Assembly: GCF_016026235.1 (NCBI RefSeq)
Contig: NZ_CP065613.1
Direction: 5' to 3' (one strand)
Length of the DNA: 64,000 nucleotides
Source of the DNA: Escherichia coli
Lineage (GTDB): Bacteria > Pseudomonadota > Gammaproteobacteria > Enterobacterales > Enterobacteriaceae
A model generated the notes under the pieces. The model did no database searches. It had not been told where the DNA came from and saw nothing but the letters and a program-made list of their open reading frames with translations. The translations under genes were made by a program, and so were the position numbers. This document shows positions 2,888-60,760 of the stretch, piece after piece (the stretch's first letter is position 1; every line of letters begins with the position of its first letter).

Positions 2888-3748
2888 TTACTCCTGCTGC
2901 TCCAGCGCATACTTATACAGCGCATTTTTCTTCACGCCGTGAATTTCTGCGGCCAGCGCCGCCGCTTTTTTCAGCGGCAGTTCTGCCTGTAGCAGAGCCA
3001 GCGTGCGCAGGGCATCAGCAGGCAGGTCTTCTTCCTGTGCTTTATGACCTTCGACAATCAGCACCATTTCGCCTTTGCGACGGTTTTCATCTTCCTTTAC
3101 CCACGCCAGCAGCTCGCCAACGGGCGCGCCGTGAATGGTTTCCCAGGTTTTGGTCAGCTCACGCGCCAGAACCACGTAGCGGGATTCGCCTAATACCGCA
3201 ACGATATCTTCCAGGCTATCTAACAGACGGTGGGTAGATTCATAAAAAATCAGCGTGCGCGGCTCCGCTTCAATGGCTTTTAGCGCATCACGGCGGCCTT
3301 TTGATTTGGCAGGTAAAAAGCCTTCGTAACAGAAACGGTCAGAGGGTAAACCCGCGGCGCTTAACGCAGTGATAGCAGCACACGGTCCGGGTAGCGGCAC
3401 CACACGAATCCCCGCTTCACGGCAGGTACGCACCAGATGGTAGCCAGGATCGTTAATTAGCGGCGTTCCGGCATCGGAAACCAGCGCAATGTTTTGCCCC
3501 TCTTGCAGCTTCGCCAGCAACGTTTCGGCTTTTTGTTGTTCGTTATGGTCGTGCAGCGCAAACAACCGGGCATTAATCCCAAAATGTTGCAGCAATAAAC
3601 CGGTGTGACGAGTATCCTCGGCGGCAATCAGATCAACGGCCTGTAATACCTCTAACGCACGCTGGGTGATATCCGCCAGATTGCCGATTGGCGTCGGTAC
3701 AATGTAAAGCTGGCCCTGAGAATTATCCGCCGATTGGTGTTGTTTCAT
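2888..3748 (-). CDS. rsmI: 16S rRNA (cytidine1402-2'-O)-methyltransferase
   Basis: 286 aa; N-terminus [15 protein letters not shown] is typical of the tetrapyrrole-methylase fold of RsmI. Confidence 0.9.
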
Positions 3749-3812: not shown

Positions 3813-5849
3813 ATGGTACCCTCAACATTTTCTCGTTTGAAAGCCGCGCGTTGTCTGCCTGTTGTTCTGGCAGCCCTGATTTTCGCCGGTTGTGGCACCC
3901 ATACTCCCGATCAGTCCACTGCTTATATGCAGGGCACGGCGCAGGCTGATTCTGCCTTTTATCTTCAGCAGATGCAGCAAAGCTCTGATGATACCAGGAT
4001 CAACTGGCAATTACTCGCCATTCGTGCACTGGTGAAAGAAGGTAAAACCGGGCAGGCGGTTGAGTTGTTTAACCAACTACCGCAAGAACTGAACGATTCT
4101 CAGCGTCGCGAGAAAACACTGCTGGCGGCAGAGATTAAACTGGCGCAGAAAGATTTTGCTGGCGCGCAAAACTTGCTGGCGAAAATCACACCTGCCGATT
4201 TAGAACAAAACCAGCAAGCGCGTTACTGGCAGGCAAAAATCGATGCCAGCCAGGGGCGTCCTTCCATTGATTTACTGCGCGCGTTAATTGCTCAGGAACC
4301 GCTGCTTGGCGCGAAAGAAAAACAGCAGAATATTGATGCCACCTGGCAGGCGCTCTCCTCCATGACTCAGGAACAAGCGAATACGCTGGTGATCAACGCC
4401 GACGAAAATATTCTGCAAGGCTGGCTGGATCTGCAGCGCGTCTGGTTTGATAACCGTAACGATCCCGACATGATGAAAGCCGGGATCGCCGACTGGCAGA
4501 AACGTTATCCGAACAACCCGGGCGCGAAAATGCTGCCAACGCAGTTGGTTAACGTAAAAGCGTTTAAACCAGCCTCGACCAACAAAATCGCCCTGCTGTT
4601 GCCACTGAATGGCCAGGCAGCGGTATTTGGTCGCACTATTCAGCAAGGCTTTGAAGCGGCGAAAAATATCGGCACTCAGCCAGTGGCAGCTCAGGTAGCT
4701 GCCGCACCTGCCGCAGACGTAGCAGAACAACCTCAACCGCAAACCGTGGATGGCGTTGCCAGCCCGGCACAAGCCTCGGTTAGCGATCTGACCGGTGAAC
4801 AGCCTGCAGCCCAGCCGGTGCCTGTAAGCGCCCCGGCGACAAGCTCCGCAGCGGTAATCGCACCCGCAAATCCATCCGCAGAGCTGAAAATCTACGATAC
4901 CTCATCACAACCACTTAGCCAGATCTTAAGCCAGGTTCAGCAGGATGGCGCGAGTATTGTGGTCGGTCCGTTGCTGAAAAATAACGTTGAAGAGTTGCTG
5001 AAGAGCAACACTCCGCTGAACGTACTGGCACTGAACCAGCCGGAGAATATCGAAAATCGCGTCAATATTTGTTACTTCGCGCTTTCACCGGAAGACGAAG
5101 CGCGCGATGCAGCGCGTCATATTCGTGACCAGGGTAAACAAGCGCCGCTGGTGCTGATCCCACGCAGTTCATTGGGCGATCGCGTAGCCAATGCGTTTGC
5201 ACAAGAGTGGCAAAAACTGGGCGGCGGCACCGTTCTGCAACAAAAATTTGGTTCCACCAGCGAATTACGCGCGGGTGTTAACGGCAGTTCTGGTATTGCT
5301 TTAACGGGTAGCCCGATTACTCTCAGAGCGACAACCGACTCCGGCATGACGACCAACAATCCAACACTGCAAACCACGCCAACCGATGACCAGTTCACCA
5401 ATAATGGCGGTCGTGTCGATGCGGTGTACATTGTGGCAACGCCGGGTGAAATCGCTTTTATTAAACCGATGATCGCCATGCGTAACGGTAGCCAGAGCGG
5501 TGCAACGCTGTACGCCAGCTCCCGCAGTGCGCAAGGGACCGCTGGCCCGGATTTCCGACTGGAGATGGAAGGCTTGCAGTACAGCGAAATCCCGATGCTG
5601 GCAGGCGGTAATCTACCGTTAATGCAGCAGGCACTCAGCGCGGTGAATAACGATTATTCACTGGCTCGCATGTATGCGATGGGCGTCGATGCCTGGTCGC
5701 TGGCAAATCATTTCTCACAAATGCGCCAGGTTCAGGGTTTTGAAATCAACGGTAATACCGGAAGCCTGACGGCTAACCCGGATTGCGTGATTAACAGGAA
5801 GTTATCATGGCTACAGTACCAACAAGGTCAGGTAGTCCCCGCCAGTTAA
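3813..5849 (+). CDS. lpoA: Outer-membrane lipoprotein activator of PBP1A
   Basis: 678 aa from ATG 3813; lipoprotein signal with lipobox (ALIFAGC) and a long Ala/Pro/Gln-rich linker. Confidence 0.9.
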
Positions 5850-7510: not shown

Positions 7511-8551
7511 TCAGAACAACAGCGCCAGCCCGCCGACAATCACACCAGACACTGCCACCATCGCCCCTGTCAGCCATAAGGCTTTCGCCGGGAACGCTTT
7601 GCGCAGCATAATCAGTGACGGCAAACTCACTGCCGGGAGCGTCATCAACAATGCCAGCGCCGGAGCGGTTCCCATACCTGCCAGCATCATCGTTTGTACA
7701 ATCGGAATTTCTGCTGCCGTGGGAATGACAAACAAGCATCCTGCTACCGCCATCGCCACCACCCACATCAGGCTGTTATCGACAGCACCATCGGCATGGG
7801 GGAATAACCAGACGCGAGCGGCACCCAACACCAGTACTGCAAGGATGTAAACCGGGATCGTACTCCAGAAAAGCGTCCATAGCGCCCTGCCCCAGCGGCT
7901 AAAAAATCCGCCCTGTGCTTCCGGTATGTCAATTTCGACCGGTGCTTGCGTTTGCGGTGTTTCACGCACCCATTTTTGCACCAGCGTCGCAATCAGCAAC
8001 ACCATCACCAGCCCCGCCACCAGACGAATCGCCACAAACCCCCAGCCGAGGACGAACCCCATAAACACCAGCGTCGCCGGGTTTAACAACGGATTGCCCA
8101 TCCAGAATGCCAGCGCACCGCCCATCGACACCTGTTGGCGACGCATTCCCGCCGCGACCGGAGCCGCACAGCAGGTACACATCATGCCCGGCAGCGAAAA
8201 CAGCGTTCCCAGCAGCGTGCCGCGAAAGCGCGATTGCCCAAGCGTACGCAACAACCAGTCACGCGGGATCAGCACCTGAATCAACGAACCGAGGATCACC
8301 CCCAGCACCGCCGCTTTCCATACTGCGAGGAAATAGATCATCGCGTAATCCAACGCCGCTTGCCACGGATTAGCATCCGCCTGCGCAAGGATAGATTTAC
8401 CGATACTGTGGGTTTCGGCAGCAGTAAACGCTTTGCCGTAGTAAGGTTGCCATTTCACATACCAGAGACCGGCAATGACAACGAGAAAGAAAAGCGCGGG
8501 TTTCCACCACTGAATGGGCGTTGCCGCCTGAGATGAAGACTGACCAGTCAT
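7511..8551 (-). CDS. yraQ: Predicted inner-membrane permease
   Basis: 346 aa polytopic hydrophobic protein in the position of K-12 yraQ. Confidence 0.85.
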   Translation of the reverse strand: MTGQSSSQAATPIQWWKPALFFLVVIAGLWYVKWQPYYGKAFTAAETHSIGKSILAQADANPWQAALDYAMIYFLAVWKAAVLGVILGSLIQVLIPRDWLLRTLGQSRFRGTLLGTLFSLPGMMCTCCAAPVAAGMRRQQVSMGGALAFWMGNPLLNPATLVFMGFVLGWGFVAIRLVAGLVMVLLIATLVQKWVRETPQTQAPVEIDIPEAQGGFFSRWGRALWTLFWSTIPVYILAVLVLGAARVWLFPHADGAVDNSLMWVVAMAVAGCLFVIPTAAEIPIVQTMMLAGMGTAPALALLMTLPAVSLPSLIMLRKAFPAKALWLTGAMVAVSGVIVGGLALLF

Positions 8552-8623
8552 AGCATTCCCCAGGAATAAGTTATGATAATTGAGCGCGTGAATATTACGC
8601 TCACTATCAATCCTTGGGAATAA

Positions 8624-9348
<725 letters not shown>

Positions 9349-9349
9349 A

Positions 9350-9884
<535 letters not shown>

Positions 9885-9905
<21 letters not shown>

Positions 9906-10328
9906 GTCGCGTAGCCAAATCATTTTTTTACCAAAGCCCAGCGTGTTGTCGGTGAATTTGATTTCATCGAGCCGGATTTCCCACACCGGGGCCGACAGCA
10001 TTCTGGCAACCGGAAAGCGACGATTGTACGCCTTGCGCGCGAGGTCGCTTTCCTCACCTTCCAGCCTGCGGATCTCACCTTTAAACTGCACACCGCGAAT
10101 TAACGCTACCGTTTTCGGCTGACCGTTTACCGTTCCGGCAACCGCAGCCTGCGGCCCACTCATCTGCGCGTGGCGCGTTTTTTCTTCCGTCAAAATGTAG
10201 AAGGCGACTTTCTGCGCATCAAACAGATAAAAAGCATTAGCGCACCACAGTTCCCCTTCCTGCTGCACACACCAGGTGACAACATGTTGTTTTGCCAACC
10301 AACGGCTGATGGTGATGAGTGTTTCCAT
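9885..10328 (-). CDS. yhbP: Uncharacterised protein (UPF0306)
   Basis: 147 aa ORF convergent with yhbO; the two 3' ends overlap by 21 nt. Confidence 0.8.
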
Positions 10329-10378
10329 TGCTGTTCTCTTTTATACTGTGGGCCTGACCTTAACATGCGACGCAGACG

Positions 10379-10681
10379 ATGACACCCTGGTTTCTTTACT
10401 TGATCCGTACCGCCGACAATAAGCTTTATACCGGGATCACCACGGATGTCGAACGCCGCTATCAGCAGCACCAAAGCGGCAAAGGGGCGAAAGCACTGCG
10501 CGGGAAAGGAGAACTGACGCTGGCGTTTTCTGCGCCAGTGGGCGACCGTTCGCTGGCACTACGGGCGGAATATCGCGTTAAGCAACTGACCAAACGGCAA
10601 AAAGAGCGTCTGGTAGCGGAAGGCGCAGGGTTTGCAGAACTGTTGAGCAGCCTGCAAACCCCGGAGATTAAAAGCGATTGA
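10379..10681 (+). CDS. yhbQ: GIY-YIG domain nuclease-like protein
   Basis: 100 aa; N-terminal [17 protein letters not shown] is a GIY-YIG motif. Confidence 0.85.
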
Positions 10682-11171
10682 AATGCTCGTGATACTCAAC
10701 CAGACCGGTTACGCCATTCAGCGCGTCATCCGCTAAACGATGTACCTGGAAGGCGCTTTCAGTGCCCGGCCAGCGGCAACGCAGATCGTGATGCGCCGCC
10801 AGTTCAAAGCCGAAACGACTGTACAGCGCCGGATCGCCCAGCGTCACCACTGCGGCATAGCCGAACTCATTAAGCGAATCGAGTCCTTCATAGACCAGTT
10901 GGCGTGCCAGCCCCTGTCCACGGTATTTTTCATCAACCGCCAACGGTGCCATGCCGACCCATTGCAGGTCTTCGCCCTGCACATCAACCGGACTAAATGC
11001 CACATAGCCAATGACCTGACCTTCGTCATCTGTCGCCACCAGTCCCAGCGTCAGAAAGCCATCTTCACGCAGATCGTGAACCAGCTTCGCTTCCGCATCA
11101 CTTTCGAATGAGCGACGCAGCAGGGCATCAATACCCGGCGCATCAATGGGAATTTCTACTCGAATTAGCAT
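10668..11171 (-). CDS. yhbS: GNAT family N-acetyltransferase
   Basis: 167 aa; acetyl-CoA-binding segment ([11 protein letters not shown]). Confidence 0.85.
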
Positions 11172-11689
11172 GGTTCACCTACCGATGTCTGTTTGGTTTC
11201 AGGCGCGGTTTTCATTCCCGCCTCAACAAAATCCGCCAGTTGCAGCAGCATCATGCGTAAGGCTTTCGGCATTTGCTCCAGTTCAATGGCGTCCATCAGG
11301 TTTTTCACATACAGCCCCAGCTCCGTATCGCCTTCAATCACCAGCCGACGCTGGAAGAAGAGCGTATCTGGATCTTGTTTACGCGCCGCAATCATCAGCA
11401 GATCGCTGGCGTCGGCACTAAAACTCACATCAGCTTGCGCGTTCTGGCTGACCACCAGTTTGCCATTCACCACCGAGGTAAACCATTGCAGGTCAATATC
11501 ACGCACATGAATACTTAACCAGCGGCCTTCAAGAAACTCCAGCTCGCCATCATCCAGCGCCTGACGGAATTGCCAGCTTAAGACCTGCTCAAGAACCTGG
11601 CGTTTTAGCGCAAATGGCGTCAGTTTTACCGGTACACTCAACAGAGATGGCCCCAAATGCACAATACGGGAACGCAGTTTATCCAACAC
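11165..11689 (-). CDS. ubiT: SCP2-domain lipid-binding accessory factor of O2-independent ubiquinone biosynthesis
   Basis: 174 aa if started at GTG (cac at 11687-11689); the ORF track offers an ATG 8 codons upstream. First gene of the unit that diverges from ubiU. Confidence 0.75.
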   Translation of the reverse strand: MLDKLRSRIVHLGPSLLSVPVKLTPFALKRQVLEQVLSWQFRQALDDGELEFLEGRWLSIHVRDIDLQWFTSVVNGKLVVSQNAQADVSFSADASDLLMIAARKQDPDTLFFQRRLVIEGDTELGLYVKNLMDAIELEQMPKALRMMLLQLADFVEAGMKTAPETKQTSVGEPC

Positions 11690-11897
11690 GAGTTTTACTC
11701 CCTGTTTCAACAATCATCCTATTTTGCCATATCAGAAAAATAACATAGCGGTATAAATCAACAATTCCATATGAAATTGCTGCTACCACCAATACAACTT
11801 TAACTGCCTTAAATCAAAAATTGTCGCAGCAAGGTTAACTAAAATCCCAGTTCGTTAACATTTTTGCGTTTTGATAGCGCAACCTTCAGGAAAAATT

Positions 11898-12893
11898 ATG
11901 GAGCTGCTCTGCCCTGCCGGAAATCTCCCGGCGCTTAAGGCGGCCATCGAAAACGGCGCAGATGCTGTTTATATCGGGCTAAAAGATGATACCAATGCCC
12001 GTCACTTCGCCGGCCTTAACTTTACCGAGAAAAAATTGCAGGAAGCGGTGAGTTTTGTCCATCAACATCGCCGCAAACTTCACATCGCGATTAACACTTT
12101 TGCGCATCCGGACGGTTACGCCCGTTGGCAGCGCGCCGTGGATATGGCGGCGCAGCTGGGTGCCGACGCGCTGATCCTCGCCGACCTCGCCATGCTGGAA
12201 TACGCCGCCGAGCGTTATCCGCATATTGAGCGCCACGTATCGGTGCAGGCTTCGGCGACCAATGAAGAGGCGATTAACTTTTATCATCGCCATTTTGACG
12301 TTGCCCGCGTGGTGCTGCCGCGCGTGTTGTCGATTCATCAGGTGAAACAGCTGGCACGGGTCACACCTGTACCACTGGAAGTGTTTGCTTTCGGCAGCCT
12401 GTGCATTATGTCGGAAGGCCGTTGCTATCTGTCGTCGTATCTGACGGGTGAGTCGCCTAACACCGTGGGCGCGTGTTCTCCGGCCCGTTTCGTGCGCTGG
12501 CAACAAACGCCGCAGGGGCTGGAATCCCGCCTGAACGAAGTGCTGATCGACCGTTATCAGGACGGCGAAAACGCAGGTTATCCGACGCTGTGTAAAGGGC
12601 GTTATCTGGTGGACGGCGAGCGCTATCACGCGCTGGAAGAACCAACCAGTCTCAATACCCTGGAACTGCTGCCGGAGTTAATGGCGGCGAATATTGCTTC
12701 GGTGAAAATTGAAGGCCGCCAGCGTAGCCCGGCGTATGTCAGCCAGGTGGCGAAAGTCTGGCGTCAGGCTATCGACCGTTGTAAGGCCGATCCGCAAAAC
12801 TTCATACCGCAAAGCGCGTGGATGGAGACGCTCGGGTCGATGTCCGAAGGCACGCAGACCACCCTTGGCGCGTATCACCGTAAATGGCAGTGA
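11898..12893 (+). CDS. ubiU: Peptidase U32 family protein UbiU (anaerobic ubiquinone hydroxylation)
   Basis: 331 aa from ATG 11898; U32 family with a conserved Cys cluster (CIMSEGRC...C...C). Confidence 0.85.
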   Translation: MELLCPAGNLPALKAAIENGADAVYIGLKDDTNARHFAGLNFTEKKLQEAVSFVHQHRRKLHIAINTFAHPDGYARWQRAVDMAAQLGADALILADLAMLEYAAERYPHIERHVSVQASATNEEAINFYHRHFDVARVVLPRVLSIHQVKQLARVTPVPLEVFAFGSLCIMSEGRCYLSSYLTGESPNTVGACSPARFVRWQQTPQGLESRLNEVLIDRYQDGENAGYPTLCKGRYLVDGERYHALEEPTSLNTLELLPELMAANIASVKIEGRQRSPAYVSQVAKVWRQAIDRCKADPQNFIPQSAWMETLGSMSEGTQTTLGAYHRKWQ

Positions 12894-12901
12894 GAAGAGC
12901 A

Positions 12902-13780
12902 ATGAAATATTCCTTAGGGCCAGTGCTGTGGTACTGGCCAAAAGAGACGCTGGAAGATTTTTATCAGCAGGCCGCCACCAGCAGCGCCGACGTGATTTAT
13001 CTTGGTGAAGCGGTATGCAGCAAGCGCCGGGCAACCAAAGTTGGCGACTGGCTGGAGATGGCAAAATCGCTCGCAGGAAGTGGCAAGCAGATTGTGCTCT
13101 CCACGCTGGCGCTGGTGCAGGCATCCTCTGAACTGGGCGAACTGAAACGCTATGTTGAGAACGGTGAGTTTCTGATTGAAGCCAGCGATCTCGGCGTGGT
13201 GAATATGTGCGCTGAACGCAAACTGCCGTTCGTCGCCGGGCACGCGCTGAACTGCTACAACGCGGTGACGCTGAAAATATTGCTCAAACAGAGCATGATG
13301 CGCTGGTGTATGCCGGTGGAGCTTTCCCGCGACTGGCTGGTGAATCTGCTTAATCAGTGCGATGAGCTGGGCATTCGCAACCAGTTTGAAGTGGAAGTCC
13401 TGAGCTACGGTCATCTACCGCTGGCCTACTCCGCTCGCTGCTTTACCGCGCGTTCGGAAGACCGCCCGAAAGATGAGTGTGAAACCTGCTGCATTAAGTA
13501 TCCGAACGGGCGCAACGTGCTGTCGCAGGAAAACCAACAAGTGTTTGTACTCAATGGCATTCAGACCATGAGCGGCTACGTTTACAACCTCGGTAACGAG
13601 CTGACATCCATGCAGGGATTGGTTGATGTGGTCCGCCTGTCACCGCAGGGTACTGACACTTTCGCGATGCTCGACGCCTTCCGCGCTAATGAAAATGGCG
13701 CTGCGCCACTATTGTTGACGGCAAACAGCGACTGTAACGGCTACTGGCGGCGGCTGGCAGGACTGGAGCTGCAAGCCTAA
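12902..13780 (+). CDS. ubiV: Peptidase U32 family protein UbiV (partner of UbiU)
   Basis: 292 aa from ATG 12902, starting 9 nt after the ubiU stop; Cys-rich C-terminal motif (CETCC). Confidence 0.85.
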   Translation: MKYSLGPVLWYWPKETLEDFYQQAATSSADVIYLGEAVCSKRRATKVGDWLEMAKSLAGSGKQIVLSTLALVQASSELGELKRYVENGEFLIEASDLGVVNMCAERKLPFVAGHALNCYNAVTLKILLKQSMMRWCMPVELSRDWLVNLLNQCDELGIRNQFEVEVLSYGHLPLAYSARCFTARSEDRPKDECETCCIKYPNGRNVLSQENQQVFVLNGIQTMSGYVYNLGNELTSMQGLVDVVRLSPQGTDTFAMLDAFRANENGAAPLLLTANSDCNGYWRRLAGLELQA

Positions 13781-30702: not shown

Positions 30703-31656
30703 ATGAATGGTAAATATTTTGTACGCCTCGCATTACATACTCTGAAATGCACTCAAAAAGATTTAGCAAGCCACTTAGGTGTTTCCTCAACACAAATTAG
30801 CAAGTGGAAAAAAGGGGAACACATGTCCGCTGATATGGAAAAAAAGTTCAGAAATATTACACAAATAGGAGATTATTCTCCTCAACTAGTTGAATGGACA
30901 GGCTCAGTCGCGAATGCTGAGAAATGGGATCGACTTATCCATTTTCTTGCTCGACGAGCTATGGACGATGCTGAAACGGGTTATATAACACAACTTCTTA
31001 CTGACGAAGATGGTTTTTTGGTTGAAGAAACAATTGATGTATTAAAGCGAATAGGTTTTCCTACACCTCTTTCCTTTCCTGAAGGACTTAATATTGACGA
31101 CGATAATGCTGATGAAGAAGAGGCTTTTTGGGAGATATTAGAGAGCAATGCTCATTGTTCTGTAATTAATGATATTTATCATGCTCTGAATGATGTTTAT
31201 GGTTTCTACATAGCATATGTTGATGAGTTGATTCAGGACGACGATTTAGATGTCTATTCAAGCGAAGCCATCAATATTCAGAGTTCATTGATATCACTTG
31301 CTGCATGCAAAATTGAAATTGATACTCCTGTTGCGTCAAACTTTAAAGAATTTCGTTATAGAGTTAAAAAAGACTACGAAAATTGGTTGAATCAACTCAA
31401 GATGATGGCATTCAGGGCGGGAATTCCGTTAAGAGCCGAACTTCTGGAAATGGTTTATAACACCGCTGACCAACTTAGCGTTGCAGCAGAAGCCGAACGT
31501 TTCGATTTCAATAAATCTCGCATTCATCCAGATATATACATGAACGAGATCCTTACTGGCATGAGAATAATTCACCAAGTGCTTCCGGTAATAATGCAAA
31601 AGTTAGAAATTACAGATTTCAAACTAGATGAAACAGATTTATGCCTGGGTAAATAG
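30703..31656 (+). CDS. Uncharacterised 317-aa protein with N-terminal XRE-type HTH and acidic C-terminal domain of unknown function (replaces yhbX of K-12 at this locus)
   Basis: Only long frame in a roughly 1.1-kb AT-rich block; RBS aagga lies 8 nt upstream of the ATG. Residues about 10-45 (LKCTQKDLASHLGVSSTQISKWKKGEH) fit the Cro/C1 HTH pattern. I recognise no motif in the remainder. Confidence 0.6.
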   Translation: MNGKYFVRLALHTLKCTQKDLASHLGVSSTQISKWKKGEHMSADMEKKFRNITQIGDYSPQLVEWTGSVANAEKWDRLIHFLARRAMDDAETGYITQLLTDEDGFLVEETIDVLKRIGFPTPLSFPEGLNIDDDNADEEEAFWEILESNAHCSVINDIYHALNDVYGFYIAYVDELIQDDDLDVYSSEAINIQSSLISLAACKIEIDTPVASNFKEFRYRVKKDYENWLNQLKMMAFRAGIPLRAELLEMVYNTADQLSVAAEAERFDFNKSRIHPDIYMNEILTGMRIIHQVLPVIMQKLEITDFKLDETDLCLGK

Positions 31657-34586: not shown

Positions 34587-34616
34587 TGAATTGATAAGAA
34601 AAAACCCCGGAGCACG
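34587..34616 (-). terminator. Rho-independent terminator downstream of ftsH
   Basis: GC-rich hairpin ccccgg/ccgggg followed on the minus strand by a run of 6 T. Confidence 0.5.
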
Positions 34617-34659
34617 CCCCGGGGTTTTCGGTACAAATACAGTCATCTGATGCGGGAAC

Positions 34660-40082: not shown

Positions 40083-40100
40083 TAATGCCAGTCAGTTAAG
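40083..40100. repeat. IS4 terminal inverted repeat, left
   Basis: taatgccagtcagttaag, 16 of 18 matches to the reverse complement of 41490-41507. Confidence 0.85.
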
Positions 40101-41423
40101 CAACTGACTGGCTCTTTTTCGGGGCTGTGGGGTATTTCCAGGGCCTCTCCTTTACCACTCTCGGGAAGGCCCTTCCCCTTCTCGTCGGTAATTTCACAAG
40201 TTGTCCCATACTTGCAAGATCGCGCATCAGCTCCGGTATACGTCCCGGTGAAGCGCCCTGCAATGTCATCAGCATTCTCATCACCATTCCGCATGATTCT
40301 GAGAAACTCAGTTGATTCGGCCAGTAACCTTTCAGATGTTCCGCCATTTTAATCATCTGATATCTCACCAGATTATAAGCCAGTAAGACACCCCACAGCT
40401 CTTGCTCCACAAGCTCCGGCTTTTTACTTCTCAGCGTCAGCCTGCTCAGTTGCATCGTCTGTTTTATCTCCCTGTATCCCAGTTCGATTTCCCAGCGATG
40501 ACTGTACAGATCCGCCATTTCTCCTCCGGGGAAGCGCATGGCGTCCGTCATCGACGTCAGCAGATGGCAGACTTTTCCTTTGCGCGTCACGGTCAGCAGG
40601 CGGGCTGTCACTTCATTTCCCAGTCCCGGCCACTTTTTTCGTGCCTGCGGGCTGGTTTTCAGCTTCACCAGATGATCGCCTTTACCCAGTTTTCTGAGCT
40701 CTTCATATTGCGCTCCCTTTCTGAGAGGTATCATCCAGTGGCGGTGTTCTCCCGCCAGGCTCCAGGCATTTAACAGTCCCAGTGAGTAATAACCTTTATC
40801 CATTAACGTCAGAGTGTTATCGCCGGTTTGTTCTATAAGTTGCTCAGCAAGCTCATTTTCGCTGTTCTTCATCGTGCCGAAGGCTGCAGCCGTCAGCAGA
40901 TGGCTGGTCAGTTCCATCTGGCAGACCATTTTGACCTGCGGGTAGAGCGCCGGGTTCCCGGCATGTGTCTGGCGGGGAAGGCTGCATCGTTCTCTGGTGT
41001 ATCCGGTGTGCGCCAGAACACACCATCGATGGCCAGCAGGGTCAGGCCGCACCAGTGCGGATGCGGCGTGGCGTTATGCCAGAGCTGCGCTGTTTTCGTG
41101 AACACGCGGCGGACAGCCTCACTTCCCAGGCGCTGGCGGGCCTGAATAACGGCACTGGGGGCAACGAAGGGGCGATTGCCCGGCAGCATGATGTCCAGGC
41201 GATTCACAATCTGGTGAAGAGGTTCTTTACGCTCAAGCGCCATGCCAACAATACACCAGACCATCATTTCGAGGGGAAGACGGCGCTTGCGTAGCGTTAC
41301 AGTACCTGATTCGGCAAGGCAACGAGAGATGAGTTCGGGGTCGAGGTAATCCCCCAGAGAAGTCAGTGGGTTACGCAGAGAATCGTAACGGGATACCAGA
41401 TCAAGAGCCTGTCCAATGTGCAT
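40096..41423 (-). pseudogene. insG: IS4 transposase interrupted by a -1 frameshift
   Basis: Two overlapping minus-strand ORFs (40908-41441 and 40096-41052) together encode 150 + 292 = 442 aa of one continuous transposase. The frame changes at a G4 run, 40974-40977. Confidence 0.8.
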
Positions 41424-41489
41424 AAAAAAATCCGGAAACAAGTGAGCGTTTCCGGATTCTTACACAGCCACTGGATCGGTCAACTGATC

Positions 41490-41507
41490 CTTAACTGATC
41501 GGCATTA
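41490..41507. repeat. IS4 terminal inverted repeat, right
   Basis: cttaactgatcggcatta. Confidence 0.85.
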
Positions 41508-53790: not shown

Positions 53791-54362
53791 GTAAAGCCAG
53801 ACGTTGGGTTATCATTGTGCTATCACTGGCGGTTCTGGTGATGATCGGCATTAATATGGCCGAAAAAGACGATACCGCCCAGGTGGTCGTCAACAACAAT
53901 GATCCCACCTATAAAAGCGAGCATACGGACACGCTCGTCTATAACCCAGAAGGGGCACTAAGCTATCGATTGATTGCTCAACACGTTGAATATTATTCCG
54001 ATCAGGCCGTTTCGTGGTTTACGCAGCCGGTACTTACCACGTTTGATAAGGATAAAATCCCGACATGGTCCGTAAAAGCAGATAAAGCCAAGCTGACCAA
54101 TGACCGGATGCTCTATTTATATGGACACGTTGAAGTCAACGCACTTGTGCCGGACTCTCAACTTCGCAGAATCACGACGGATAACGCGCAGATCAATCTG
54201 GTGACGCAGGATGTTACCTCTGAAGACCTCGTCACGTTATACGGAACAACATTTAACTCCAGCGGTCTGAAAATGCGCGGCAACTTACGCAGCAAGAACG
54301 CCGAGCTGATTGAAAAGGTTAGAACATCCTATGAAATTCAAAACAAACAAACTCAGCCTTAA
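53787..54362 (+). CDS. lptC: LPS export protein LptC
   Basis: 191 aa with an N-terminal transmembrane anchor; its start overlaps the kdsC stop. Confidence 0.95.
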   Translation: MSKARRWVIIVLSLAVLVMIGINMAEKDDTAQVVVNNNDPTYKSEHTDTLVYNPEGALSYRLIAQHVEYYSDQAVSWFTQPVLTTFDKDKIPTWSVKADKAKLTNDRMLYLYGHVEVNALVPDSQLRRITTDNAQINLVTQDVTSEDLVTLYGTTFNSSGLKMRGNLRSKNAELIEKVRTSYEIQNKQTQP

Positions 54363-59402: not shown

Positions 59403-60035
59403 ATGATTCGCTTATCTGAACAAAGTCCCCTGGGCACCGGAAGACATCGGAAATGTTATGCGCATCCGGAAGATGCCCAACGCTGTATCAAGATTGTCTA
59501 CCATCGTGGCGATGGTGGCGATAAAGAGATCCGTCGTGAGTTAAAGTACTACGCGCATCTTGGTCGCCGGTTAAAAGACTGGAGTGGAATACCGCGCTAT
59601 CACGGTACCGTTGAGACGGATTGCGGAACCGGTTATGTCTACGATGTGATTGCCGATTTTGACGGCAAGCCCTCCATTACGCTGACCGAATTTGCTGAAC
59701 AATGCCGTTACGAAGAAGACGTTGCACAACTGCGCCAGTTACTGAAACAGCTGAAGCGTTATTTGCAGGATAACCGTATCGTGACGATGTCGCTGAAGCC
59801 GCAGAATATCCTCTGTCACCGCATTAGTGAGTCAGAGGTTATCCCCGTCGTCTGCGACAACATTGGTGAAAGCACATTGATTCCACTGGCGACCTGGTCA
59901 AAGTGGTGTTGTCTGCGTAAGCAAGAGCGGTTGTGGAAACGATTTATCGCCCAACCGGCGCTGGCTATTGCCCTGCAGAAAGATCTGCAACCTCGTGAGA
60001 GCAAAACGCTGGCCCTCGCTTCGCGCGAAGCTTAA
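59403..60035 (+). CDS. yrbL: PhoP-regulon protein YrbL
   Basis: 210 aa, [33 protein letters not shown]. Confidence 0.9.
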
Positions 60036-60760
60036 TCCAGCTGGTGTTGTTGCATAAACGGCTCACCGCCTAACTGATACATCTGCCGTAAAATCCACGC
60101 CTGACGGCTGCGCACGTAGCCCGATGGCGCGGAGACTTTGAAACGAAGTGGATTAGGTAATACAGCTGCCAGTAAGGCAGCTTCCGATCGGGTAAGTTTG
60201 CTCGCGGGTTTGTGGAAATAACGTTGTGCCGCAGCTTCGACGCCAAACACACCGTCGCCAAATTCGGCGATATTCAGGTAAACCGTCAGGATACGCTTTT
60301 TGCTCCAGACAGTTTCTATCCCCAGCGTTAATCCGGCTTCCAGCCCTTTTCGAACCCAGCTACGCCCATCCCATAAAAAGAGATTTTTGGCTGTCTGTTG
60401 AGAAATCGTTGAAGCACCGCGAATACGGTTTTCATTGCGCTCATTGTGCGCCAGGGCTTTCTCAATGGAAGCGACATCAAAGCCCCAGTGCTCAGGAAAT
60501 TTCTGATCTTCTGCGGCAATCACCGCCAGTCCCATCCACGGCGAGATTTGATCCATACTGACCCAGTCAGAATGTGCCACGTAACGAAAATTGCCATGCA
60601 GCCAGGCGCTGACCTGTCGCTCGACCATTACCGCTGAGAAGGGAACAGGCGCAACGCTAAACAACGCGATGCCCCCGCCCCAGTAAACGGCGAGGACAAC
60701 CATTAACCGCAGAAGAAAACGGCGAACAAAACTAAACACCGTTAAGCGGCTTTTACTCAT
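60032..60760 (-). CDS. mtgA: Monofunctional peptidoglycan glycosyltransferase
   Basis: 242 aa; GT51 motifs ([10 protein letters not shown] and RGASTISQQ). Confidence 0.95.

Follow-up and report, generated by a model that had tools for sequence, protein, structure and literature searches.

Gene order and coding overlaps of the yhb cluster

The stretch of Escherichia coli DNA analyzed here, 64 kb in length and referred to as the window, contains a compact group of five genes, yhbO, yhbP, yhbQ, yhbS and ubiT (yhbT), in which two pairs converge with shared 3′ coding ends and the last two genes overlap in tandem (Table 1). A further convergent pair, yrbL and mtgA, shares bases elsewhere in the window. 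The original prediction described these four overlaps, of 21, 14, 7 and 4 nt, and they are borne out at those positions by the open reading frames (ORFs), the sequence and the RefSeq annotation; the gene identities and overlap lengths given there were likewise correct. The geometry is identical in the RefSeq annotation of MG1655, and the same five-gene coordinates come from the PGAP annotation of a strain with 100% identity over 9300-11800.

Table 1. Coding sequences, shared ends and RNA 3′-end features at the two loci, in window positions
Feature	Position	Strand	Basis
yhbO CDS (DJ-1/PfpI deglycase, 172 aa)	9387..9905	+	ORF, PGAP, Pfam
yhbP CDS (YhbP family protein, 147 aa)	9885..10328	-	ORF, annotation, conservation
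yhbQ CDS (GIY-YIG nuclease, 100 aa)	10379..10681	+	ORF, annotation, Pfam
yhbS CDS (GNAT acetyltransferase, 167 aa)	10668..11171	-	ORF, annotation, Pfam GNAT
ubiT (yhbT) CDS (SCP2-domain accessory factor, 174 aa, GTG start)	11165..11689	-	ORF, annotation, Pfam SCP2
yhbO/yhbP convergent 3′-end overlap, 21 nt	9885..9905	both strands	ORFs, sequence, annotation
yhbQ/yhbS convergent 3′-end overlap, 14 nt	10668..10681	both strands	ORFs, sequence, annotation
ubiT/yhbS tandem overlap, 7 nt, ATGCTAA	11171..11165	-	sequence
Tandem junction: Shine-Dalgarno-like GGTAGGTGA (11183..11175), then ATGCTAA (11171..11165)	11165..11183	-	sequence
yrbL (59403-60035 +)/mtgA (60032-60760 -) convergent overlap, 4 nt TTAA	60032..60035		
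yhbP/yhbQ divergent gap between start codons, 50 nt	10329..10378		sequence, annotation
yhbP-proximal stem-loop CGGCUGG-UAA-CCAGCUG (9847..9831), then AUCUUUAUCG	9821..9847	-	terminator-like site, fold, conservation
Strong stem-loop, ~-25 kcal/mol, no U tract, inside yhbQ coding tail	10626..10663	-	fold
Stem-loop (60094-60133) in mtgA antisense, then published yrbL 3′ end ~60142, 107 nt past stop	60094..60142	+	fold, Term-seq
Published Rho-dependent termination region, yhbP-strand transcript inside yhbO	9515 (MG1655 3299102)	-	Adams et al. 2021

The convergent pairs are real opposite-strand genes whose 3′ coding ends share bases. Pfam domains were recognized in four of the five cluster proteins (YhbO, YhbQ, YhbS and UbiT), and a Pfam search with YhbP returned no match. 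The DJ-1_PfpI domain spans residues 3-168 of YhbO (E=1e-57), and GIY-YIG spans residues 4-76 of YhbQ, with a 24-aa C-terminal tail outside the domain.

Overlaps of this kind are no more numerous here than chance would give. Three of the ten convergent junctions in the window overlap, and the same 64 kb holds ten tandem overlaps of 1-43 nt. The E. coli genome has 75 convergent overlapping pairs (Huvet & Stumpf 2014, PMC4161906), which, over our own estimate of ~620 convergent junctions, corresponds to p ~0.12 per junction and a binomial P(>=3 of 10) of ~0.11. An unusual clustering of overlaps was rejected on this basis.

Conservation and origin of the overlaps

The cluster was compared across 80 Enterobacteriaceae loci from species-level genomes. 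In most of the 80 genomes that hold them, the five ORFs are conserved and uninterrupted, with YhbP at 74-98% amino acid identity. Of 79 loci, 76 have a yhbQ/yhbS overlap of 14 nt and three, all from Citrobacter, one of 4 nt (TTAA). The yhbO/yhbP overlap is 21 nt long in 38 loci, with another 13 at 15 nt and a single one at 39 nt. The yhbO gene is absent from 24 of the 80 loci, where YhbP terminates directly after its core with ...WLR(D/DL/QE) or ...WQR, and in several of these lineages (E. albertii, E. whittamii, the C. freundii complex and Trabulsiella) yraR follows directly after yhbP on the same strand. The tandem junction reads ATG[CT]T[AG]A in all 74 loci that hold the ubiT 3′ end, and the yhbP/yhbQ gap, with conserved TAACAT and TATAAA/TAGCAT-like motifs, is 49-56 nt long in 78 of the 79 measurable loci (212 nt in the other). 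Judged across these loci, the overlap geometry is old and stable in the Enterobacteriaceae. Selection acting on the overlap could likewise account for the strong conservation across genera and for the synonymous constraint.

The two members of each convergent pair in the cluster differ in how their ends evolve, with conserved C-termini in YhbO and YhbS and variable tails in YhbP and YhbQ among the loci compared. The YhbP tail, SGTEQA and its stop, is what results when the sequence for the end of YhbO, (A)LRLLGA and its stop, is read in antisense. In 52 of 52 loci, the yhbP stop is antisense to rare leucine codons (TTA/CTA) in yhbO, namely those for L166 (39 loci) or L168 (13 loci). Similarly, the conserved Phe-Asn codons of YhbS are spanned by T[CT]A, whose antisense is the yhbQ stop, T[GA]A. 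Both tails behave as unconstrained extensions: that of YhbP is gone where yhbO is missing, and that of YhbQ is variable and lies outside GIY-YIG.

In the account that we favor, the C-terminus of one partner per pair is under functional constraint (YhbO ...ALRLLGA, which belongs to the DJ-1/PfpI domain, and YhbS ...HFNRF), and the YhbP and YhbQ frames overrun their own cores as far as the first in-frame stop antisense to that C-terminus. Overlap length is therefore set by the conserved partner. At the level of sequence, stop-codon run-on is shown to be the best account of the convergent overlaps. More broadly, the locus would be best explained as a set of ordinary, ancient, compact junctions without intergenic DNA and with no special device, a reading to which we give a probability of roughly 0.85.

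At the tandem junction, yhbS begins with an ATG that has GGTAGGTGA upstream, and a motif of this type is near-invariant at that position among the junctions listed. The C-terminal window of ubiT shows the strongest synonymous constraint of the entropy scan (-0.76). Co-transcription of ubiT and yhbS has been shown by RT-PCR (PMC10470549). The junction combines the features of coupled genes, with overlapping start and stop codons, a Shine-Dalgarno sequence inside ubiT and one published transcript. ATGCTAA with its upstream Shine-Dalgarno sequence would be a standard coupled junction in a co-transcribed operon, and from it we infer translational coupling itself.

Antisense read-through and embedded stem-loops

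Each convergent transcript had been predicted to enter its partner gene in antisense, and this claim follows from the coding overlap and agrees with published data. The extension is forced: no mRNA can lack the stop codon of its own gene, and that codon lies inside the partner coding sequence. The yhbO-yhbP, yhbQ-yhbS and yrbL-mtgA pairs all appear in the list of 165 convergent excludons compiled for MG1655 (Sanmartin et al., NAR 2025, PMC12288877). In 146 of the 165, the predicted terminator of one gene is embedded in the transcription unit of its neighbor, and excludon pairs show higher synteny than other neighbors (PMC12288877). The overlaps and their antisense transcription are already known, being catalogued in the excludome, and are ordinary genome compaction.

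Published termination data bear on two of the strands. For the yhbP strand, Adams et al. 2021 (PMC7815308, supplementary file 2) reported a Rho region inside yhbO with a Rho score of 4.79 (p=2.7e-9), across which coverage goes from 77 to 20 in untreated cells and from 115 to 143 with bicyclomycin; it was placed in the window by coordinate conversion via the MG1655 annotation. For the yrbL strand, the same study lists a Term-seq 3′ end inside mtgA, 3349181/2 (+), classed as “antisense mtgA” (supplementary file 1) and located in the window by sequence match, and a further Rho region at 3349699 with a Rho score of 14.6. Adams et al. 2021 contains no curated Term-seq 3′ end for yhbO, yhbP, yhbQ, yhbS or ubiT and no Rho-region entry for the yhbS, yhbO and yhbQ strands, and Kim et al. 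2012, consulted for mapped transcription start sites and 3′ ends, has no entries for the cluster genes. Dependence on Rho thus has published support in yhbP and yrbL and is presumed for yhbS, yhbO and yhbQ. Most likely, Rho would load on the C-rich, untranslated antisense RNA once the ribosome stops and would terminate transcription a few hundred nucleotides downstream, and exonucleases would then most likely trim the RNA as far as a stem-loop within the partner coding sequence.

The existence of such stem-loops touches two further parts of the original prediction. Its premise that no intrinsic terminators fit in these junctions is weak and misleading, as it assumes that intergenic space is needed, and three candidate 3′-end stem-loops, after yhbP, yhbS and yrbL, are found inside the partner coding sequences. 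It also took 3′ ends mapped within coding regions as pointing to mistaken start or stop calls; this was ill-posed, as 3′ ends inside the partner gene are what is expected.

The yhbP-proximal stem-loop begins 38 nt past the yhbP stop, inside yhbO codons Q148-R153. The site (9847..9821) has a 7-bp stem with five GC pairs, a hairpin energy of ~-10.5 kcal/mol and the tail AUCUUUAU (5 U in 8), and it passes a terminator scan that gave no overall enrichment (7 terminator-like sites over 8500-12500 against 5.5±2.5 expected). Across 51 loci, 96.9% of cells are paired, compared with 1-61% for slid controls. Covariation in the same 51 loci is not above shuffles; the support consists of synonymous invariance and G-U-tolerant changes, with no compensatory pairs. 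The hairpin region is the lowest synonymous-entropy window in yhbO and the sixth of 646 windows; T151 is encoded by ACC in 52 of 52 loci, and the adjacent R153, T154 and P155 vary freely. The hairpin emerged only from a targeted pair count and the synonymous-entropy scan. The element is a candidate yhbP 3′ stem-loop or weak intrinsic terminator.

The yhbS-proximal stem-loop begins 4 nt past the yhbS stop, and the 120-nt fold that contains it has z=-3.3. Escherichia and Citrobacter share the hairpin at -20 to -25 kcal/mol, Salmonella has a weaker form, and Klebsiella, Kluyvera and Kosakonia lack it; 75.5% of cells are paired, compared with 29-48% for slid controls, and one pair varies as GC:23/CG:13. 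As this palindrome lies upstream of the yhbQ stop, it cannot terminate yhbQ. The C/G ratio is 1.1-1.45 in all antisense 3′ regions, and it reaches 2.10 at +53..+130 past the yhbP stop, right after the hairpin, and 1.62 at +27..+104 past the yhbS stop. Dar & Sorek (2018, PMC6061677) found that stable stem-loops lacking U tracts are followed directly by rut sites, and, following their work as the standard for a protective stem-loop, we find here a stable stem-loop without a U tract and a C-rich (rut-like) stretch directly downstream. The structure at 10626..10663 is a candidate protective 3′ stem-loop of the ubiT-yhbS mRNA.

Other searches were negative within their scope. A plus-strand U6 hairpin (10165-10187) was considered as a yhbO terminator and rejected, since its fold equals that of shuffles (z=0.0) and its five pairs are kept in 2 of 51 loci. 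RNAalifold consensus structures across genera were unconvincing 3′ of yhbO, yhbP and yhbQ (-3.0, -2.7 and -1.1 kcal/mol, respectively), and folds, pair counts and the entropy scan found no conserved structure 3′ of yhbO and yhbQ. An Rfam scan of 8000-13000 found no family, with a CRISPR-DR22 match (E=0.39) attributable to chance. The scan of 8500-12500 found no consensus sigma-70 promoter in the yhbP/yhbQ gap, which must nevertheless hold or overlap both promoters.

Alternative readings and relation to known systems

It is conceivable, and in our judgment unlikely, that the overlaps were kept because convergent transcription represses the partner gene, through polymerase collision or RNase III cleavage of the duplex, with stress-induced yhbO acting against yhbP or Fnr-induced ubiT-yhbS against yhbQ. 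The excludome listing of all three pairs, the synteny of excludons (PMC12288877), the geometry conserved across the Enterobacteriaceae and the synonymous constraint beside the yhbO/yhbP junction would all suit such a role. However, any expressed pair with overlapping coding sequences satisfies the coverage criterion for an excludon automatically, and protein constraint on one partner explains the conservation. Moreover, the yhbO-less loci show no replacement partner in the junctions examined, and the repeated absence of yhbO argues against an obligatory yhbO-yhbP partnership; reciprocal-expression data for these pairs were not found in the literature searched. A wider reading, which we hold to be similarly doubtful, is that the genes of a pair harbor, under selection, RNA signals that serve their partners and, in its fullest form, that the whole cluster is a pair of interdigitated, mutually tuned transcription units. 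As parts of it, the stem-loop in yhbO codons 148-153 would be under synonymous selection as a yhbP 3′-end or terminator element, and the rare yhbO leucine codons would be kept as the source of the yhbP stop.

Quite improbable is an arrangement of interleaved noncontiguous operons, with ubiT-yhbS-yhbP(-yraR-yraQ) on the minus strand, read across yhbQ and yhbO in antisense, and yhbO-yhbQ on the plus strand, read across yhbP in antisense. The alternating strands, overlapping 3′ ends and mere 50 nt between the yhbP and yhbQ starts are compatible with it, as are the failure to find a consensus sigma-70 promoter in that gap and the position of yraR after yhbP in yhbO-less lineages. Nevertheless, ExcludonFinder gives only three such operons in MG1655, none of them at the yhb cluster, and does not place yhbP-yhbQ among its 16 divergent excludons (PMC12288877). 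The Rho region in yhbO antisense, ahead of yraR, interrupts the path from yhbP to yraR, a strong stem-loop follows the yhbS stop, and the gap carries conserved -10-like motifs. Finally, an annotation artefact, in which a gene is unreal or a start or stop mis-called and the overlaps do not exist in vivo, can be rejected as having almost no chance of being right, for while YhbP lacks a Pfam match and the yhbS start could in principle shift, the convergent overlaps depend on nothing but stop codons, which cannot be mis-called, the five ORFs and the yhbS ATG with its upstream motif are conserved as described above, and YhbS-SPA and UbiT-SPA fusions were tagged at these very C-termini, with synthesis of YhbS-SPA described in PMC10470549.

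The preferred reading, that of ordinary and ancient compact junctions, has little importance beyond housekeeping. It confirms that the annotation at the locus is sound and that the pairs represent genuine, obligatory overlap of sense and antisense transcripts. The cluster also offers a clean worked example of how an unconstrained tail, encoded antisense to a constrained C-terminus, yields a short convergent overlap, and it shows that 3′-end signals can sit in the coding sequence of a neighbor and leave a footprint at synonymous sites. In practical terms, recoding or deletion of the last codons of yhbO or yhbS will also alter yhbP or yhbQ, and possibly mRNA 3′ ends.

Among known systems, the excludons of MG1655 are defined by overlapping UTR transcription and have a mean intergenic distance of 95 nt (PMC12288877), whereas in the yhb and yrbL-mtgA pairs the overlap reaches into the coding sequences, so the transcripts are bound to overlap. 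The Rho-dependent 3′ ends of Dar & Sorek and of Adams et al. share with this locus a stem-loop after the stop, C-rich RNA downstream and bicyclomycin-sensitive read-through on the yhbP and yrbL strands. Unlike those of Dar & Sorek, the candidate yhbP and yhbS structures lie inside the coding sequence of another gene rather than in intergenic DNA. Collision-driven bidirectional terminators (Ju et al. 2019; Wang et al., preprint, 10.1101/2022.10.23.513370) likewise involve a convergent pair and a palindrome near the junction, here that at 10626-10663 without a U tract, but they lie between gene boundaries and are Rho-independent, whereas the yhbP strand shows Rho dependence.

The ubiT/yhbS junction resembles coupled tandem overlaps (ATGA, TAATG or ATGNTRA) in its shared stop and start, ATGCTAA, its Shine-Dalgarno sequence in ubiT and its co-transcription. 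It differs in that an overlap of 7 nt is less common than one of 1 or 4 nt, and in that UbiT and YhbS have no known shared function, YhbS having been shown to play no part in making ubiquinone. The closest match for the convergent junctions is the class of tail-to-tail overlaps arising from stop-codon loss and extension (PMC4161906), with which they share short lengths of 4, 14 and 21 nt and one unconstrained, lineage-variable tail (15/21/39 nt and 4/14 nt); the TTAA of yrbL/mtgA is the classic 4-nt form. There is no substantive difference from these known overlaps, of which the window holds three cases, two of them at adjacent junctions.

Overlapping gene ends of the yhbO-ubiT cluster

All four overlaps of the original prediction, three convergent and one tandem, were found at the lengths and positions claimed. 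The annotation was transferred from NZ_CP065615.1, with which positions 9300-11800 share 100% identity; of 5426 complete E. coli genomes, 5424 contain a match to this region. The whole 64 kb is ~99.94% identical to that record, with the caveat that the two differ by two IS insertions. An IS4-family element of ~1.4 kb between dacB and obgE (40083-41507), its transposase frame apparently split (overlapping ORFs 40096-41052 and 40908-41441), is missing there in NZ_CP065615.1, and an ISEc60 copy between ftsH and folP in NZ_CP065615.1 is missing from the window (junction near 34609-34620). Moreover, a gene for a 317-aa helix-turn-helix-domain protein lies at 30703-31656 between tRNA-Leu (leuU) and argG, a position at which MG1655 carries yhbX. 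The argG-yhbX pair is listed in the excludome paper (PMC12288877).

Coordinates of genes, overlaps and embedded hairpins (for the five genes, the ORF list, the sequence and PGAP annotation of NZ_CP065615.1 and MG1655 agree)
Feature	Position	Strand	Remarks
yhbO	9387-9905	+	
yhbP	9885-10328	-	
yhbQ	10379-10681	+	
yhbS	10668-11171	-	
ubiT (yhbT)	11165-11689	-	
yhbO/yhbP overlap	9885-9905		21 nt, convergent
yhbQ/yhbS overlap	10668-10681		14 nt, convergent
ubiT/yhbS overlap	11165-11171	-	7 nt, tandem; ATGCTAA
yrbL/mtgA overlap	60032-60035		4 nt, TTAA, convergent
Hairpin after yhbP stop	9847..9821	-	CGGCUGG-UAA-CCAGCUG, then AUCUUUAUCG
Hairpin after yhbS stop	10663..10626	-	~-25 kcal/mol, no U tract; in yhbQ coding tail

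Three of the ten convergent junctions in the window overlap, the remaining gaps measuring 39-155 nt. E. coli has 663 overlapping adjacent pairs, 75 of them convergent (Huvet & Stumpf, PMC4161906); by our own estimate of ~620 convergent junctions, ~12% overlap, and at that rate the probability of at least three among ten is ~0.11. The three are not above chance, and their lengths lie inside the usual short range. Tandem overlaps in the window also number ten (1-43 nt), and two in the transferred PGAP annotation, yraN/lpoA (43 nt, 5807-5849) and lptC/lptA (32 nt, 54331-54362), exceed every overlap treated here.

Origin and conservation of the convergent ends

Eighty Enterobacteriaceae loci were drawn from one YhbP scan of species-representative genomes, and the five orthologues were placed by tblastn, each extended to its stop codon. 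The yhbQ/yhbS overlap is 14 nt in 76 of 79 loci and 4 nt (TTAA) in three Citrobacter loci, and all 74 ubiT/yhbS junctions read ATG[CT]T[AG]A, with a GGTAGGTGA-type motif upstream that is near-invariant among the junctions listed. The yhbO/yhbP overlap is 21 nt in 38 loci, 15 nt in 13 and 39 nt in K. pneumoniae, the junction being disturbed by frameshifts or pseudogenes in four.

The YhbO C-terminus is highly conserved and belongs to its Pfam domain, which covers residues 3-168 of 172, and the YhbP tail past the conserved ...GFGKKxxWLR core is variable. From its Ser codon on, that tail (DSGTEQA in E. coli) is the antisense reading of the last yhbO codons, and the yhbP stop, TAA or TAG, is antisense to the rare yhbO Leu codons TTA or CTA. 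Of 52 loci, 39 have this codon at L166 and the remaining 13, which make up the 15-nt class, at L168. Likewise, YhbS has a conserved C-terminus (...HFNRF), and YhbQ carries a variable tail beyond its GIY-YIG domain, which spans residues 4-76 of 100. The yhbQ stop, T[GA]A, lies antisense to a T[CT]A that straddles the conserved YhbS Phe-Asn codons; since either Phe codon yields a yhbQ stop, the 14-nt overlap is "locked". The overlaps thus arose in the classical way for tail-to-tail pairs, by stop-codon run-on. In K. pneumoniae ATCC 13883 (locus L084, junction ~3420-3460), GGC replaces the yhbO stop codon and YhbO is six residues longer (…LLGAGITPPV*), a natural case of stop-codon drift extending a convergent overlap.

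Within ~3 kb of downstream sequence, yhbO was not found beside yhbP in 24 of the 80 loci (L009, L010, L012, L015, L016, L018, L019, L021, L023, L024, L026, L027, L031, L037, L051, L052, L060, L069, L071, L074, L077, L079, L081 and L083), the groups being E. albertii, E. whittamii, the C. freundii complex, Kluyvera and Trabulsiella. YhbP there ends right behind the core (WQR*, WLRD*, WLRDL* or WLRQE*). In E. albertii, Trabulsiella, E. whittamii and the C. freundii complex, yraR directly follows yhbP on the same strand, and a CTATAGTTA motif is common to the E. albertii and Citrobacter junctions. Either repeated precise deletion or a single yhbO insertion could account for the pattern.

Antisense transcripts and embedded hairpins

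An mRNA must contain its own stop codon, so sense-antisense overlap cannot be avoided once both partners are expressed. The antisense read-through originally predicted is thus forced by the coding overlap, and published data agree. For example, yhbO-yhbP, yhbQ-yhbS and yrbL-mtgA are among the 165 convergent excludons (pairs with overlapping antisense transcripts) found by ExcludonFinder in at least 50% of 58 MG1655 transcriptomes, and 146 of these 165 pairs have predicted terminators embedded in the neighbour's unit (PMC12288877). At a Rho termination region at MG1655 3299102 (minus strand, "antisense yhbO"; window 9515, ~370 nt beyond the yhbP stop; score 4.79, p=2.7e-9), coverage drops from 77 to 20 in untreated cells and changes from 115 to 143 when bicyclomycin is added, a Term-seq 3' end of yrbL mapped to 3349181/2 ("antisense mtgA"), and a further yrbL Rho region lies at 3349699 (Adams et al. 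2021, PMC7815308). By sequence match, this yrbL end is window 60142, 107 nt beyond the stop, and a stem-loop (60094-60133) sits just before it. Furthermore, RT-PCR has shown ubiT and yhbS to be co-transcribed (PMC10470549).

That no intrinsic terminators fit in the junctions proved beside the point, as candidate 3' hairpins are embedded in the partner's coding sequence. The yhbP-side hairpin starts 38 nt past the stop, within yhbO codons Q148-R153, and 96.9% of cells are paired in 51 loci versus 1-61% in slid controls. On the minus-strand RNA its substitutions turn G-C pairs into G-U, and on the plus strand they would leave A-C mismatches; covariation across the 51 loci was not above shuffles. 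In an unbiased synonymous-entropy scan of the five genes it is the lowest yhbO window and sixth of 646 overall, below it only ubiT ends. Codons T151 (ACC, 52/52), L149 (CTG, 47/52) and S152 (AGC, 49/52) are held, and the adjoining R153, T154, P155 and L158 vary freely.

The yhbS-side hairpin region (z=-3.3 for a 120-nt fold) has 75.5% of cells paired versus 29-48% in slid controls, with one pair alternating GC (23 loci) and CG (13 loci); Escherichia and Citrobacter have a strong form of the hairpin and Salmonella a weaker one, and Klebsiella, Kluyvera and Kosakonia lack it. A second, weaker minus-strand hairpin downstream of the yhbS stop (ACCAGACGCUCUUUUUGCCGUUUGGU, 10588-10614) was the only structure RNAalifold recovered across all 78 loci; it lies opposite the conserved YhbQ peptide TKRQKERLV and may reflect mere protein conservation. 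Downstream of yhbO and yhbQ, no conserved structure was found across the loci compared.

Competing readings and known systems

The best-supported reading, to which we give a probability of about 0.85, is incidental compaction: antisense read-through is obligatory, Rho would end it, and transcripts would be trimmed back to stem-loops embedded in the partner gene. Rho dependence has been published for the yhbP and yrbL transcripts and would extend to those of yhbS, yhbO and yhbQ. It is doubtful that the pairs are instead regulatory excludons, with overlaps kept because convergent transcription represses the partner, as protein constraint accounts for their conservation, many related genomes lack yhbO, and a literature search found no reciprocal-expression data specific to these pairs. 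Interleaved noncontiguous operons, in which same-strand genes are co-transcribed across an opposite-strand gene, would suit the alternating strands and the short yhbP/yhbQ gap, but they are improbable given the Rho region in yhbO antisense, the yhbS-proximal stem-loop and the lack of support in the excludome paper (PMC12288877). In that gap, the divergent start codons are 50 nt apart (10329-10378; 49-56 nt in 78 of 79 measurable loci), and conserved TAACAT (yhbQ sense) and TATAAA/TAGCAT (yhbP sense) lie 12-14 nt upstream of each ATG, implying very short leaders if these are -10 boxes. An annotation artefact (an unreal gene or a mis-called start or stop) is scarcely credible and was rejected, because stop codons alone fix the convergent overlaps, which are therefore not annotation choices, and the ORFs are conserved: Pfam domains are clear in four of the five proteins (DJ-1/PfpI, GIY-YIG, GNAT and SCP2), and YhbP, for which the Pfam search gave none, is conserved as an ORF in 80 species-level genomes.

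None of the overlaps is new: every annotation has them, and the published excludon list includes the three convergent pairs. What this analysis adds is small, namely the asymmetric overlap origin, the finding that yhbO is repeatedly missing and YhbP truncated to match, and the embedded hairpin's synonymous-site footprint, all of which exemplify known principles. Finally, the four antisense 3' regions are all C-rich (C/G 1.1-1.45, peaking at 2.1 right behind the yhbP-side hairpin), and in this they match the Rho-dependent transcripts of Dar & Sorek, in which a stable stem-loop lacking a U tract is followed directly by a rut site.
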